In this document: piece by piece, positions 29,775 to 63,185 of the stretch | Position numbering within the stretch: position 1 is the first letter of the stretch | Layout: each line of letters opens with the position of its first letter | DNA from: Trueperaceae bacterium | GTDB lineage: Bacteria; Deinococcota; Deinococci; Deinococcales; Trueperaceae | Direction: 5' to 3' | DNA length: 64,000 nt | NCBI GenBank assembly: GCA_965215565.1 | Contig: CBDCDZ010000004.1 | Span: 608,001 to 672,000 of the forward strand | The notes under the pieces: model-generated | Databases searched by the model: none | Told to the model about the DNA's origin: nothing | Seen by the model: only the letters and a program-made list of their open reading frames with translations | Program-made: the position numbers and the translations under genes

Positions 29775-30435
29775 AATCGTCCTCTACGTCTCCTTCGCTC
29801 CGTCTCTCTCGGGGGCGGTCCTCTTTGCGCCCCGAGACCACCTCGACGACGTTGCCCATCAGCTCTTCGCGGCGGCGCTCGATCTCCAAAAGGATGTTGT
29901 CCACGCGGCTCGAGAGGTAGTTGTAGCCGATAAGCGCCGGAATTGCCACGATGAGCCCCGCCGCCGTCGTCACGAGCGCCTGCCCAATGCCGTCCGCTAG
30001 TGCGGCGGGGTTGCCCGTGCCCTGCTGCGAAATTTCTGAAAACGCAACGATCATCCCCGTGACCGTACCCAAAAGCCCTAGAAGCGGCGCGATCTGCGCA
30101 ATCGTCCCGAGCGGGCGCAAGCCTTTCGTAAGCTGCTGCTCCTCCTCCAACGTCGCCTCTTGAAAGGCGGCTTCGACGGCGGCGCGTCCGTAGGGCAGGC
30201 GTGTCAGGGCAGCTTTGAGCACCCGCGCGATGGGTCCGCCATGATTTTCGCAGGCGACGAGCGCCATCTCGAGGTTGCGCTCGCGCACGGCGGCGTTGAC
30301 CCGCACCATCAGCCGGTCGACGTCCATGCGCTCTTTAGAGAGCTTCAGAAAACGCGCGAAAAAGAGGTAGAGCGCGTAGAGCGATACCAGGAGGATGGCG
30401 ATGAGAACAGGTCCACCACTGCGAAGAAGGTCCAT
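29752..30435 (-). CDS. exbB: ExbB/TolQ/MotA proton channel protein
   Basis: APLLGLLGTVTGMI and GIGQALVTTAAGLIVAIPA motifs. Confidence 0.93.
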   Translation of the reverse strand: MDLLRSGGPVLIAILLVSLYALYLFFARFLKLSKERMDVDRLMVRVNAAVRERNLEMALVACENHGGPIARVLKAALTRLPYGRAAVEAAFQEATLEEEQQLTKGLRPLGTIAQIAPLLGLLGTVTGMIVAFSEISQQGTGNPAALADGIGQALVTTAAGLIVAIPALIGYNYLSSRVDNILLEIERRREELMGNVVEVVSGRKEDRPRERRSEGDVEDDYEPIRAT

Positions 30436-30768
30436 AACGTCTGTATCCTAAGCGCCTCGGGGCTTAATCAGATGAGAGAGTGTAGGGTGCGCCATAGTCC
30501 TCTTTACTTTAACGCGGGAGCGACTGTCACGCTAGGTCTAAGATAACGTGTGTAAGGGTTCTATTAGCAGTTCCAAGACATACCGAGACGGATGAGCGCA
30601 GGTCTCTGTCCGCAAGGACTAGCGGGATTTCATCTCATAACGTGCGTGCTACTTTCTGAAAGCCCGCAGGGACGCAGTTTTCGCAGAGCGAATGACGTAG
30701 TTTTCCGAAGGAAACGACGTTCTCAAAAGTAAGAGTGTCTCAAACCAGATGAACTTAGTATAGAGTTG

Positions 30769-31707
30769 TCAAGCCCCCTTCCACCTCTGTGGGTGCTGCT
30801 GAGTGACTTGCAGCATGAAACGAAAGAGTTCTCTTGCGAGATAGGTTTTGAGACTTCTTAGAGCAGCCCGGCGGGTCTTGCCTTGCTGCTGTTTCTTGTC
30901 GAGATAGGCTCTTGTCGGTTCGCTGTGGCGCAGTCTGACTTGGGCAATCATGTGAAAGGTGCGGTTGAGCCGACGGTTGCCGCCGATGTTGAGTTGCCTT
31001 CTCTTCTGACCACCAGAAGAGCGCTCGACAGGCGCACAACCTGAATACATGGCAAAGGCGTGTTGTGAACGAAAGCGTCGGATGTCACCTGCTTCAGCAA
31101 GTAGCGTGGCGGCGTGAACGACGCCGACGCCAAAGACCTCTAAGAGTTCAGGCATCAGTTCGTCAACGAGGGCTTTCATCGCCTGCTCGAGCGTCTTGAG
31201 TTGTTCTTTAAGCACTGCAATAACGGCTTCGACGGCTTGGCGAGCCACCTCTAGCTCAAGGCTCGCTAAGCTCAGCTTGTGCGCTGTAAGCTGTTTAGCT
31301 AGCGCTTCTCGGGTGCGGGTCAGATGTTTGAGGTCTTCAACCGCTTGCCGAGGTGCAAACGTAGTCAGCTCAGGATTAGCCAAAGCAGCCCGAGCTACGT
31401 TTTCAGCGTCTACCTCATCACTCTTCTTGCGTCCTCTTTTGCTGCGGTACTGACTCGTCAGACTCGGACTAATGTCCACAACCTTATGGTCCTGCCCGAG
31501 CAACGCTTGACTCAACCTCCGAGCAAAGGGGTTATTCGCCCCTTCAATAGCGCACCGCTGAACGTCATAGCGCTTTATCCAGTGCTCCAAAGTTGCCAAG
31601 CCCTCAGCCGTATTCGTAACGGTGCAGTGACCTAATACCTTGCCCTGTTTATCTAACGCTGCTGCGGTATGGCTCTGCGGATGTGGATCAACCCCTATAA
31701 TGACCAT
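30769..31707 (-). CDS. IS110 DEDD recombinase/transposase
   Basis: IGVD, AIE and KSDEVDA (DEDD RuvC-like), GVGVVHAA, GCAPVERSSG (catalytic Ser), GNRRL; AAGGAGG RBS. Confidence 0.95.
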   Translation of the reverse strand: MVIIGVDPHPQSHTAAALDKQGKVLGHCTVTNTAEGLATLEHWIKRYDVQRCAIEGANNPFARRLSQALLGQDHKVVDISPSLTSQYRSKRGRKKSDEVDAENVARAALANPELTTFAPRQAVEDLKHLTRTREALAKQLTAHKLSLASLELEVARQAVEAVIAVLKEQLKTLEQAMKALVDELMPELLEVFGVGVVHAATLLAEAGDIRRFRSQHAFAMYSGCAPVERSSGGQKRRQLNIGGNRRLNRTFHMIAQVRLRHSEPTRAYLDKKQQQGKTRRAALRSLKTYLARELFRFMLQVTQQHPQRWKGA

Positions 31708-31719
31708 ACAACCTCCTTA

Positions 31720-31863
31720 GGTTGCTGCTCACGGTAGCTGCTTATCCGTCTATGAGGCTACTAAGCGTCTTAGTATCAGGCAAGCTCCGTGTAGCTTAGT
31801 GAGCGAGGTGTGCAGTTCATCTGTTAGCCCTAAAGCTGATACTTGCTGGGCATCACCTCGCTT
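31720..31863 (-). ncRNA. Predicted IS110 bridge RNA
   Basis: Two stem/internal-loop modules; the first loop matches the target (AGCAAGTATC, CAGATGA), the second matches the donor junction (ATACTAAG, TAGACGGA); ends approximate. Confidence 0.82.
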
Positions 31864-31943
31864 CTCTTAATATACGGATACCTGCTATGTACTAAATCCT
31901 CTGCGAAATAGACTTAGAGTAGAGGAGTAGGCTAAAGTAGAGG

Positions 31944-33030
31944 ATGAACGTCGAGAAGCTAAAGAGACGCCCGAAGCACTTACACAACTTCACAGGTTTA
32001 ACGGTTGAACAGTTCGAGGCGTTGTGCGCGGCGGTGGCTGAGGCGCGAGCGAAGCGAAGTGAAGAGGGCAAAGGGCGGCAGCGAGCCGTGGGCGGGGGAC
32101 GCAAAGCGAAGCTGAGCTTAGAGCGACAACTGCTGGTTGTGCTGATGTACTACCGGCTCTATGTGACGCAGATACTCTTGGGCTATCTATTTGACCTAGA
32201 CGATAGCAATGTCAGCCGTCTCATTGGCGAGTTGCGCCCTACGCTGCAAGCAGTTCTGCCCTTGCCGATTCAAGAAACGCTGCTCTTTGCCAAACCGAGA
32301 AAGCGCATTGGAAGCTTAGAAGCGCTGCTCGAGAAGCATCCTGAACTCGAGGAAGTGCTTGTAGACGCTACCGAGCAGGCGTTACAGAAGCCTAAAGACA
32401 AGGCGAGGCACAAAAGCAGGTATTCGGGCAAGAAGAAGCGGCATACGCTTAGGTTAGAGCAAAGCTCAAAGGCTCTTAGCCTTCACCTAGAAGACGCAGG
32501 TCACAAGCACGCCTGAAGGTCTATTCCTCCACGTATCGCGCTCCATTGAGGGGCGTGTCAGTGACATCACCCTGCTAAGGGGCAGCGACCTGCTACGTGA
32601 GTTGCCCCTCAAGCTAGACGTGCGCGTCGACCGTGGCTACGACGGCGTTGCACAAGACTATCCCAACAGGCACTTCGAGCAGCCCTACAAAGCCAGGCGT
32701 AACAAACCCTTAGACCTCATCCAAAAGCTCGCCAACAGCCTACAGAACAAAGCTCGCGTCAAAGTGGAAAACGCGCTGGCTCACCTCAAGCGTTTCAAGC
32801 TCCTAGCCGGTCTCTACCGAGGTCCAGAAAGGAGCTATGACGACACCTTCTTAACCATCGCCGGACTTCACAACAGAGCCTTTAGCAGGGCGTCTAGCGG
32901 GAGCGCGCGCTTTTCCGCGCGACTTCATGCCGTTATCAACGCGCTAACTCAATGACCAGATGCGTCGCGCGTGGACCGCTCCCGCTAGACCTGCTGCTAA
33001 AGGCGCAAGCTAGATAGGCTCACTTGGTAA
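31944..33030 (+). pseudogene. HTH_Tnp_4 + DDE_Tnp_4 transposase disrupted by two insertions
   Basis: FTGLT..F, VDATEQ, YSGKKKRHT, DRGY and RVKVE motifs; deleting 32451-32490 rejoins the two ORFs in frame. Confidence 0.85.
32878..33004. repeat. Small element with 11-bp terminal inverted repeat in the transposase 3' end
   Basis: GCCTTTAGCAG / CTGCTAAAGGC; shares modules with 2161-2200, ~10908-10930 and 546-570. Confidence 0.7.
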
Positions 33031-54333: not shown

Positions 54334-54443
54334 TAGCAAGTATCATTTGGTTTGAGCCGGTCCCACACTAGAGAACTTGGGCGAACACGTACATTCTTAA
54401 ATGATGCTTGCGCTCTTCCAATTCAGTACTTCTGTGAACTGCT
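54334..54443. repeat. Repeat family B, short form
   Basis: TAGCAAGTATCATTTGGTTTGAGCC...AGTACTTCTGTGAACTGCT. Confidence 0.75.
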
Positions 54444-63074: not shown

Positions 63075-63185
63075 AAGCAAATAACATAAATACTGGGTTT
63101 GAATCACGCAAGTATCATTTTCTAAAGTGCGTGCTAAACTGTGTTCTCTCTTCTCAGATTGGCTCAAACCAAATGATACTTGCTA
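63075..63185. repeat. Repeat family B, short form (reverse orientation)
   Basis: Ends GATTGGCTCAAACCAAATGATACTTGCTA. Confidence 0.8.

Follow-up and report, generated by a model that had tools for sequence, protein, structure and literature searches.

A predicted compact bridge RNA in an IS110-group insertion sequence that occupies the commonest repeat of a Trueperaceae genome

An insertion sequence (IS) at positions 30751..31878 (minus strand) of a 64,000-nucleotide stretch of a Trueperaceae bacterium genome (GenBank assembly GCA_965215565.1, contig CBDCDZ010000004.1, positions 608,001 to 672,000; hereafter the window, to which coordinates refer unless otherwise indicated) is, with a probability that we put at about 93%, an IS110-group element that moves by RNA-guided, conservative, site-specific recombination directed by a predicted bridge RNA. 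This reading derives from sequence comparisons: the guides covary with the flanking DNA and the stems covary with themselves, the recombinase has the IS110 Pfam domains and aligns with that of IS621, and the predicted handshake bases fit as they should. Together these sustain the IS110 bridge-RNA architecture that an original prediction, made from the letters of the window, had proposed. That prediction also called the bridge RNA new, which holds insofar as it is a clean new natural example, but not for the mechanism itself, which was published for the IS110 group in 2024 and has since been catalogued for thousands of elements (PMC11208160).

The element is 1128 bp long, corresponding to 1126 bp plus one extra copy of a TC core. 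Reading the minus strand from 31887 to 30740, the left flank TAGCAGGTA (31887-31879) is followed by a TC core (31878-31877) and a left end starting CGTATATT / CGTATATTAAGAG, and at the other side the TGA stop codon of the recombinase gene is followed by CAACTCTATACTAAGT, TC, and ATCTGGTTTGAG, with the right end ATACTAAGT extending to 30753, the second TC core at 30752-30751, and a right flank beginning ATCTGG. The non-coding left end measures 171 bp; besides the core, the right end has only 16 nt. All of the sequence statements in the original prediction about coordinates, junctions, loops, and stems could be re-read exactly as written. The host genome (4.49 Mb in 4 contigs) has seven full copies of the element, six of them identical and one with a single substitution, and all seven have TC at both junctions and share the arrangement tAGCAGGTA^TC ... 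TC^ATCTGGTTTGAG (carets mark junctions). The element thereby splits a repeat end exactly, with the core on both sides, and the seven sites fall within the pattern AGCARGTA^TC^AT[CT]TG that had been anticipated for other genomic copies. The left half of the split repeat end, the left target TAGCAGGTA (31879..31887, minus strand), is kept at 7/7 copies, and the DNA outside these 9 nt is unrelated among them; the right target half (ATCTG...) and the remainder of the interrupted repeat occupy 30563..30750 (minus strand; far end approximate), and the right-hand repeats at the seven sites belong to different subfamilies.

The recombinase gene (30769..31707, minus strand) encodes 312 amino acids, with an ATG start codon, an AGGAGG sequence 8 nt upstream, and a TGA stop codon that lies inside a -35 promoter box. 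The protein contains an N-terminal PF01548 domain (DEDD_Tnp_IS110; E = 6.4e-22, residues 4-149) and a C-terminal PF02371 domain (Transposase_20; E = 1.3e-20, residues 188-268), and its sole solved relatives by sequence are IS621 (structure 8wt6; phmmer E = 2.9e-16, residues 30-294) and ISCro4 (E = 2.7e-14). Residues D7, E55, D97, D100, and S231 are unchanged throughout an alignment of 27 homologues, and E55, D97, D100, and S231 (the serine of ...YESG...) align to motifs of IS621, in which D11/E60/D102/D105/S241 form a composite active site (PMC11208158). The two Pfam domains and the retention of these catalytic columns support assignment of the recombinase to the DEDD/Ser type.

The minimum free energy (MFE) fold of the left end, at -57.6 kcal/mol, is more stable than expected from its composition (z = -3.7; 0/200 shuffles are as good), and comprises two large stem-loops and, across the ribosome-binding site, a small hairpin. 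Both of the stems named in the original prediction, AGCGAGGTG/CACCTCGCT and CACGG.AGCT/AGCT.CCGTG, are present in it. Numbering structural positions (p) from the first T of the core, such that the window position is 31879 - p, the predicted target-binding module (31802..31862, minus strand; p 17-77) has an outer stem AGCGAGGTG/CACCTCGCT (p 17-25/69-77), a UGC/GCA pairing (p 27-29/66-68), an internal loop, and a small inner hairpin (p 42-53). Following a 6-nt linker (p 78-83), the predicted donor-binding module (31727..31795, minus strand; p 84-152) has an outer stem GCU.CACGGAGC/GCU.CCGUG.AGC (p 84-95/141-152), again a UGC/GCA pairing (p 97-99/138-140) and an internal loop, and an inner hairpin GCU-UAGU-AGC (p 113-122). 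The body of the predicted bridge RNA, from the first base of the target stem to the last base of the donor stem, would therefore be ∼136 nt (31727..31862, minus strand). The small hairpin that may sequester the ribosome-binding site (CAACCU/AGGUUG; 31708..31725, minus strand; helix 6) is part of the MFE fold but weakly supported, with no compensatory changes among nine close relatives.

Comparison of homologues supports the two-module structure. With RNAalifold applied to a plain MAFFT alignment (A2), the stems of the target module were recovered and the outer donor stem was missed, because this variable stem is misaligned; the structure was therefore drawn by hand on the nine nearest sequences (A3; 56-100% protein identity), and the family was realigned with a covariance model (A4; 61 distinct sequences). 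In A3, 89.7% of cells are paired and 20/40 pairs are compensatory, with both sides changed, values that 0/500 shuffles reach; when partners are slid by 1-3 columns, pairing falls to 24-42%. The corresponding values for A4 are 88.2% of cells paired versus 65.9% when shuffled, 36/40 pairs compensatory, and no more than 44.8% paired in the slid controls. The target stem (helix 1) is 100% paired in A3, with 6/12 pairs compensatory, and 94-99% paired in A4, where 12/12 pairs have changed on both sides; for the donor module, 12/17 pairs of helices 3 and 4 are compensatory in A3, and helices 4-8 are 86-99% paired in A4. The covariance-model check on homologues that had been suggested for this RNA was made with a model built from A3 (R1), run on 65 sources (64 loci and the window) that hold the 5' part of a homologous gene. 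Sixty-three of the 65 contain one match each, always just upstream of the recombinase and on the same strand, with no match in L031 or L085; in its own genome R1 finds exactly the seven copies, with a score of 187.6 bits at 31727..31862.

The homologues used for comparing guides with targets derive from a starting set of 137 loci, 103 of which have a tblastn match beginning within the first 12 residues. Redundant loci from the host genome, exact duplicates, loci with <150 nt of upstream sequence or a match not from residue 1, and 11 loci in which no TC[CT]GTAT motif of the left end lies at 140-240 nt from the start codon were removed, leaving 52 elements. The ∼50 homologues (41-92% amino acid identity, from Deinococcota, Acidobacteriota, Chloroflexota, and metagenomes) have the same architecture, and the core is TC in 52/52.

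The first internal loop of the predicted RNA matches both strands of the target, core included (8/9 and 7/7). The left target guide AGCAAGUAUC (DNA AGCAAGTATC; 31838..31847, minus strand) has the sense of the left target plus core and would pair with the bottom strand; as had been described, it agrees at 9/10 positions with its own site and at 10/10 with variants at 54335(+) and 63170-63184(-), the difference being one A·C mismatch to AGCAGGTATC at the fourth of nine positions. The right target guide CAGAUGA (DNA CAGATGA; 31817..31823, minus strand) is the exact reverse complement of TC+ATCTG (7/7). Among 49 homologous elements with 10 nt of left flank (three others are at contig ends), which carry 30 different left-target 9-mers (seven flank bases plus TC), 36 have the 9-mer at ≥8/9 positions in the 5' strand of their own first loop, 18 of them at 9/9, compared with 19/1998 control non-self pairs (9-mers differing at ≥3 positions) that reach 8/9. 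For the right side, we compared 26 elements with an intact gene, a recognizable right end, and ≥5 nt of right flank, and the reverse complement of the right-target 7-mer (TC plus five flank bases) is present at 7/7 in the element's own RNA in 17, versus 0/430 non-self pairs. These comparisons support the view that the loops of homologues change together with their flanks.

Similar relationships link the second loop to the element's own ends. The left donor guide AUACUAAG (DNA ATACTAAG; 31769..31776, minus strand) equals the right end and stops 1 nt short of the core, and the right donor guide UAGACGGA (DNA TAGACGGA; 31745..31752, minus strand) is complementary to TC+CGT, with one mismatch, and then to TA, matching the reverse complement of TC+CGTATA at 7/8, so both donor loops are as originally read. 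In 26/27 elements the 5' strand of the second loop matches the right end at 8/8, and guide and right end vary in step among four variants, ATACTAAG, ATACCAAG, ATACCAGG, and ATATCAGG. The right donor guide and the left end likewise vary together, as TCTG/CAGA in 39 and TCCG/CGGA in 4 of 45 aligned sequences, a relationship that RNAalifold reported as "pairs" between columns 1-4 and 174-177. The core is read by the right donor guide, whereas in this element and its nearest relatives both core bases go unmatched by the left donor guide; most members of the clade match the first of them, and 0/27 the second. The failure of the left donor guide to match through the core, already remarked upon for this copy, is thus a clade-wide property of 27 elements and not decay.

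A feature absent from the original prediction concerns the handshake dinucleotides. In IS621, each 3' loop strand carries, 3' of the portion that reads the core, two bases that after exchange pair with the opposite DNA partner at its positions 7 and 6, and handshake bases that fit their own partner block strand exchange (PMC11208158). At the equivalent position in the target loop is AC (31815..31816, minus strand), which fits the last two pre-core bases of the donor (GT) and not those of the target (TA), and in the donor loop is UA (31743..31744, minus strand), which fits the TA of the target and not the GT of the donor; the non-cognate fit is 2/2 and 2/2, and the cognate fit 0/2 and 0/2. The first base of the target-loop dinucleotide pairs with donor position 7 in 24/26 elements (and with the element's own target in 10, 9 of these only by G·U), and the first base of the donor-loop dinucleotide pairs with target position 7 in 25/26 (own donor, 0/26). 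The second bases are less consistent, with a non-cognate fit in 25/26 and 10/26. As judged from sequence, this handshake fit independently supports the bridge-RNA reading at a fine level of detail.

Several related elements have features of their own. A second, diverged IS110 element in the host genome (C4:421041-421967, L027; 56% protein identity) has one in-frame TAA, and its left end is bridge-RNA-like (51 bits with R1), with a first loop TGGTTCATC compared with a flank TGGTCCATC. The 92%-identical element from a second species of the genus has ∼80 nt inserted after recombinase codon 3 (L014:1413-1500), and the insert carries a GATGATACC word similar to internal sequence of the host repeat, so the element itself appears to have received a small repeat. 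A metagenome relative (L061; 71%) has a ∼21-nt palindromic insert, ATCCTTGGTTTCCAAGGAT, between the right-end core and the expected TC^ATCTGGTTTGAG. At L066:27-100 there are two left-end starts ∼50 nt apart, ..AAAATTG^TC^CGTATAAT and ..TAAT^TC^GTATAGT, and the target loop is matched by the flank of the outer one.

The ends of the element also carry the halves of a putative promoter. The right end has a -35 box, TTGACA (30767..30772, minus strand), which contains the TGA stop, and the left end has a -10 box, TATATT (31869..31874, minus strand), and these are separated by an 18-nt spacer only across joined ends; a promoter scan of the integrated locus found no sigma-70-like site. TTGAC[AG] is present in 27/27 right ends of the family, at 17-18 nt from the -10 box across joined ends in 20; in the other seven (Deinococcus and one other group) the spacing is 12 nt, and their -35 box must therefore lie elsewhere. 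A promoter formed at joined ends has been published for IS621 (PMC11208160), and integrated IS621 is reported to express its RNA weakly (PMC13626964); the split promoter and the lack of a promoter-like site in the integrated locus fit both. A transcript starting ∼7 nt past the -10 box would begin right at the first stem. Neither a circular joint of 30751-31878 nor a contig bridging the empty site was present among contigs of four runs over 30600-32030, although contigs drop rare forms and are uninformative either way. In the same data, the contig with the element has a depth of ∼264-270 in run X1 and 50-51 in run X2, and unique flank contigs have ∼15 and 6, so that the ratios are about 17 and 8.5, compared with the seven full copies assembled; such depths are not copy numbers.

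The landing site is abundant. The empty site AGCAGGTATCATCTG occurs 230 times exactly in the genome and 433 times allowing ≤2 mismatches, and a minor variant, AGCAAGTATCATTTG, occurs 52 times. It ranks third among the 15-mers of the genome, and the four commonest are all overlapping windows on the site, which agrees with the earlier description of the target as the host's most abundant repeat. The target word is the start of a unit of ∼113 bp, present in hundreds of copies, that resembles a miniature inverted-repeat transposable element (MITE): its ends are imperfect inverted repeats (TATAGCAGGTATCA ... TGATAACCGCTATA), with the target word inside the terminal inverted repeat, and the uninterrupted unit folds end to end as single-stranded DNA, albeit modestly (z = -2.0). 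The opposite end of the unit is too diverged to serve as a target. We considered a full-length transposon lying between two inverted target words and rejected it, as there is no recurring spacing between such words; the target word thus marks only one end of a short repeat. Besides the seven full copies there is a solo left-end remnant of 27 nt in the usual target at the same junction (C4:3341785-3341813), and a decayed, 5'-truncated copy (C4:3452692-3453285; 83% identity, with many deletions) that has the same right junction (C4:3453285) and the same repeat sequence on either side. The 92%-identical element in the second species occupies the same site in a different context. None of the ∼9 insertions is in the minor repeat variant, whose expected share is 18%, and this difference is not significant. 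No clearly interrupted gene was seen at the seven sites in a rough check of stop-to-stop frames in the IS-less sequence, made without gene calls. At 2/7 sites no frame of ≥50 aa crosses the insertion point, and the frames at the remaining sites are short, save at C4:1291029, where the crossing frame extends, on its upstream side, a 425-codon frame whose start lies beyond the element.

Other repetitive sequences are nearby or elsewhere in the genome. Adjoining the split repeat is an IS5-like transposase in two frames (31944-32955, plus strand), with HTH_Tnp_4 matched in 31944-32516 (3e-16) and the end of DDE_Tnp_4 in 32602-32955 (2.7e-06), which is probably a degraded insertion sequence. Further frequent 15-mers, including the tandem-like GCAATGAGCAATGAG (∼60 copies), the palindromic AGGGGTTGAAACCCC (∼55), and TCCGTCTCAGTATGT (∼55), suggest other repeat families.

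The closest described counterpart is IS621 of Escherichia coli, which has a 177-nt bridge RNA (PMC11208160, PMC11208158, 8wt6). The likenesses include the DEDD RuvC-like and Ser Tnp domains, a long left end and short right end, the lack of duplication past the 2-nt core, a promoter split between the ends, two pseudo-symmetric stem/internal-loop modules in which the 5' strand reads the bottom and the 3' strand the top DNA strand, a discontinuous right donor guide, and handshake bases that fit the non-cognate partner. Both land in a short, abundant palindromic repeat, that of IS621 being the E. coli REP (repetitive extragenic palindrome), as given in the title of Choi et al. 2003. The present element differs in that the protein match is distant (312 aa versus the 328-residue IS621 chain), the core is TC and not CT, the linker between the modules is 6 nt, the right target guide is 7 nt rather than 4 nt, and the host is a member of the Deinococcota (Trueperaceae); some orthologues are reported to have right guides longer than the 4 nt of IS621 (Durrant et al., PMC11208160). 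A further difference is the left donor guide that pairs with neither core base, although the 8-nt left donor guide of IS621 would, judging from its numbering, reach only the first core base, so this difference would be one of degree. IS621 also has a 5' stem-loop (nucleotides 1-33), whereas here, as first noticed, there is no separate 5' hairpin, and no room for one, with only 16 nt ahead of the first stem, six of which are the -10 box.

Other IS110-family elements offer parallels in their choice of target. ISPpu9 and ISPpu10 of Pseudomonas putida (PMC12288879, bioRxiv 10.64898/2026.03.19.712850) are multi-copy IS110 elements all located in one conserved intergenic palindromic sequence, a target in DNA able to form a stem-loop, much as the target words here lie in the terminal inverted repeat of the MITE-like unit; for ISPpu10, the repeat hairpin is reported to add specificity. 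IS1111 elements share the recombinase family and are likewise directed to another mobile element, at its terminal inverted repeat, but their guide RNA is downstream of the recombinase, in a long right end, and they have 7-17-bp subterminal inverted repeats (PMC11208160); membership of the IS1111 group is ruled out here by the right end of 16 nt plus core and the structured RNA upstream. A literature search for IS110 in Deinococcus or Truepera found nothing on this clade among the papers listed, with the proviso that the supplementary catalogue of Durrant et al. may list it.

Several observations weigh against the bridge-RNA reading. Alignment A4 was fitted to the model's own structure and its sequences are related; more generally, the homologues are mutually related and several have common target classes, so the counts above overstate the number of independent events. 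Rfam gave no match over 30400-32200 at E values up to 1, although it was not established whether Rfam 15 includes a bridge-RNA model. The core is covered by every guide in the published IS621 scheme and is unpaired by the left donor guide here, and the 5' stem-loop of the consensus from 103 IS621 relatives (PMC11208160) is missing. This stem-loop, however, is a feature of the IS621 clade consensus and not of the family definition. A deletion of it has been tried in IS621 and is reported to be tolerated. The left target guide has its A·C mismatch at all insertion sites seen in the host genome, and none of the public runs listed as holding the element is recorded as RNA. The last point would suit an account in which the left end amounts to no more than a structured 5' leader with protein-binding DNA sites, the recombinase reads DNA directly, and the loop-flank matches are subterminal repeats; the last hairpin could sequester the ribosome-binding site, and part of the leader may well be regulatory. 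We regard this account as very unlikely, because the matching words occupy unpaired strands within two covarying stems, with one sense and one antisense strand in each loop, which is the published geometry of RNA-DNA pairing (PMC11208160), and because the handshake bases obey a rule based on RNA (PMC11208158). Moreover, the stem covariation preserves pairing and not sequence, as predicted for an RNA structure and not for a DNA site, and the homologous IS621 is shown to need its RNA (PMC11208160).

Two further accounts concern how the copies arose. Seven nearly identical copies in one repeat family could conceivably reflect homologous exchange, with spread by duplication or gene conversion among abundant repeats and identical junctions inherited from one ancestral insertion. 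This is barely plausible: only 9 nt of repeat are present on the left side, with unrelated DNA beyond it in 7/7 copies, the right-side repeats are of different subfamilies, homologues whose loop words differ are inserted elsewhere, at sites matching their own words, and in another species of the genus a related element has the same site within different surroundings. Alternatively, the element may be a genuine bridge-RNA system that is crippled here, its guide defects making present insertion rare and its copies relics. Its left target guide mismatches every insertion site seen and fits fully only the minor variant AGCAAGTATCATTTG (52 copies; with a G·T wobble in the right guide), where there is no copy of the element, and both a decayed copy and a solo end exist. 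We nevertheless think this improbable, as six copies are 100% identical and the seventh is one base off, pointing to recent movement, and incomplete core pairing of the left donor guide is common to 27/27 family members. Furthermore, the same guide A is kept in the 92%- and 71%-identity elements, which are also at ..CAGGTA^TC sites, and a 63% relative is at a ..TAAGTA^TC site that matches the guide A, so the A looks to be ancestral and the mismatch tolerated. In natural IS621, too, position four of the left target guide forms a non-canonical pair (G53·T; PMC11208158).

The anatomy, copies, junctions, covariation, catalytic residues, and promoter halves of the bridge-RNA element are read directly, and we infer the remaining steps of its movement from the IS621 model, including, by analogy, that the RNA is made, where it starts and ends, that the protein binds it, and that the loops determine specificity. 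On excision the two ends would be joined with a single TC core between them, placing TTGACA 18 nt from TATATT. The resulting junction promoter would transcribe from next to the first stem, producing the ∼136-nt bridge RNA and then the recombinase message. The first module would hold the target and the second the joined ends, and a tetramer of the 312-aa recombinase would cut and exchange strands at the TC core. The handshake bases located 3' of each core-reading GA (AC and UA) fit the other partner and should drive exchange forward, as in IS621. As its target belongs to the terminal inverted repeat of a MITE-like unit with hundreds of copies, the element would have many landing places.

Tentatively, the clade may be a naturally minimal bridge system with rules slightly unlike those of IS621, namely an RNA of ∼136 nt that lacks a 5' stem-loop and has a 6-nt linker between its modules, TC as the core, a left donor guide that leaves the core unread, and a fourth-position mismatch that is tolerated or used; we hold this to be a possibility rather than the expected outcome. 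If true, the mismatch would let one guide serve both the 230 sites (by A·C) and the 52 sites (by G·T wobble) of the commonest repeat, the clade would provide a compact and differently constrained scaffold for programmable recombination, and core reading by all four guides would not be obligatory. For the host genome, the element is an insertion sequence dwelling almost wholly within the terminal repeat of a far commoner mobile element. For the family, it would be a natural bridge-RNA system from the Deinococcota, with relatives in soil bacteria, in which four guides, both handshakes, and a split promoter can be read from sequence, and ∼50 homologues show guides tracking targets. The departures of the clade from IS621 are relevant to the question of what in the published model is indispensable, in particular the 5' stem-loop, the core, the reading of the core by the donor guides, and the mid-guide mismatch.

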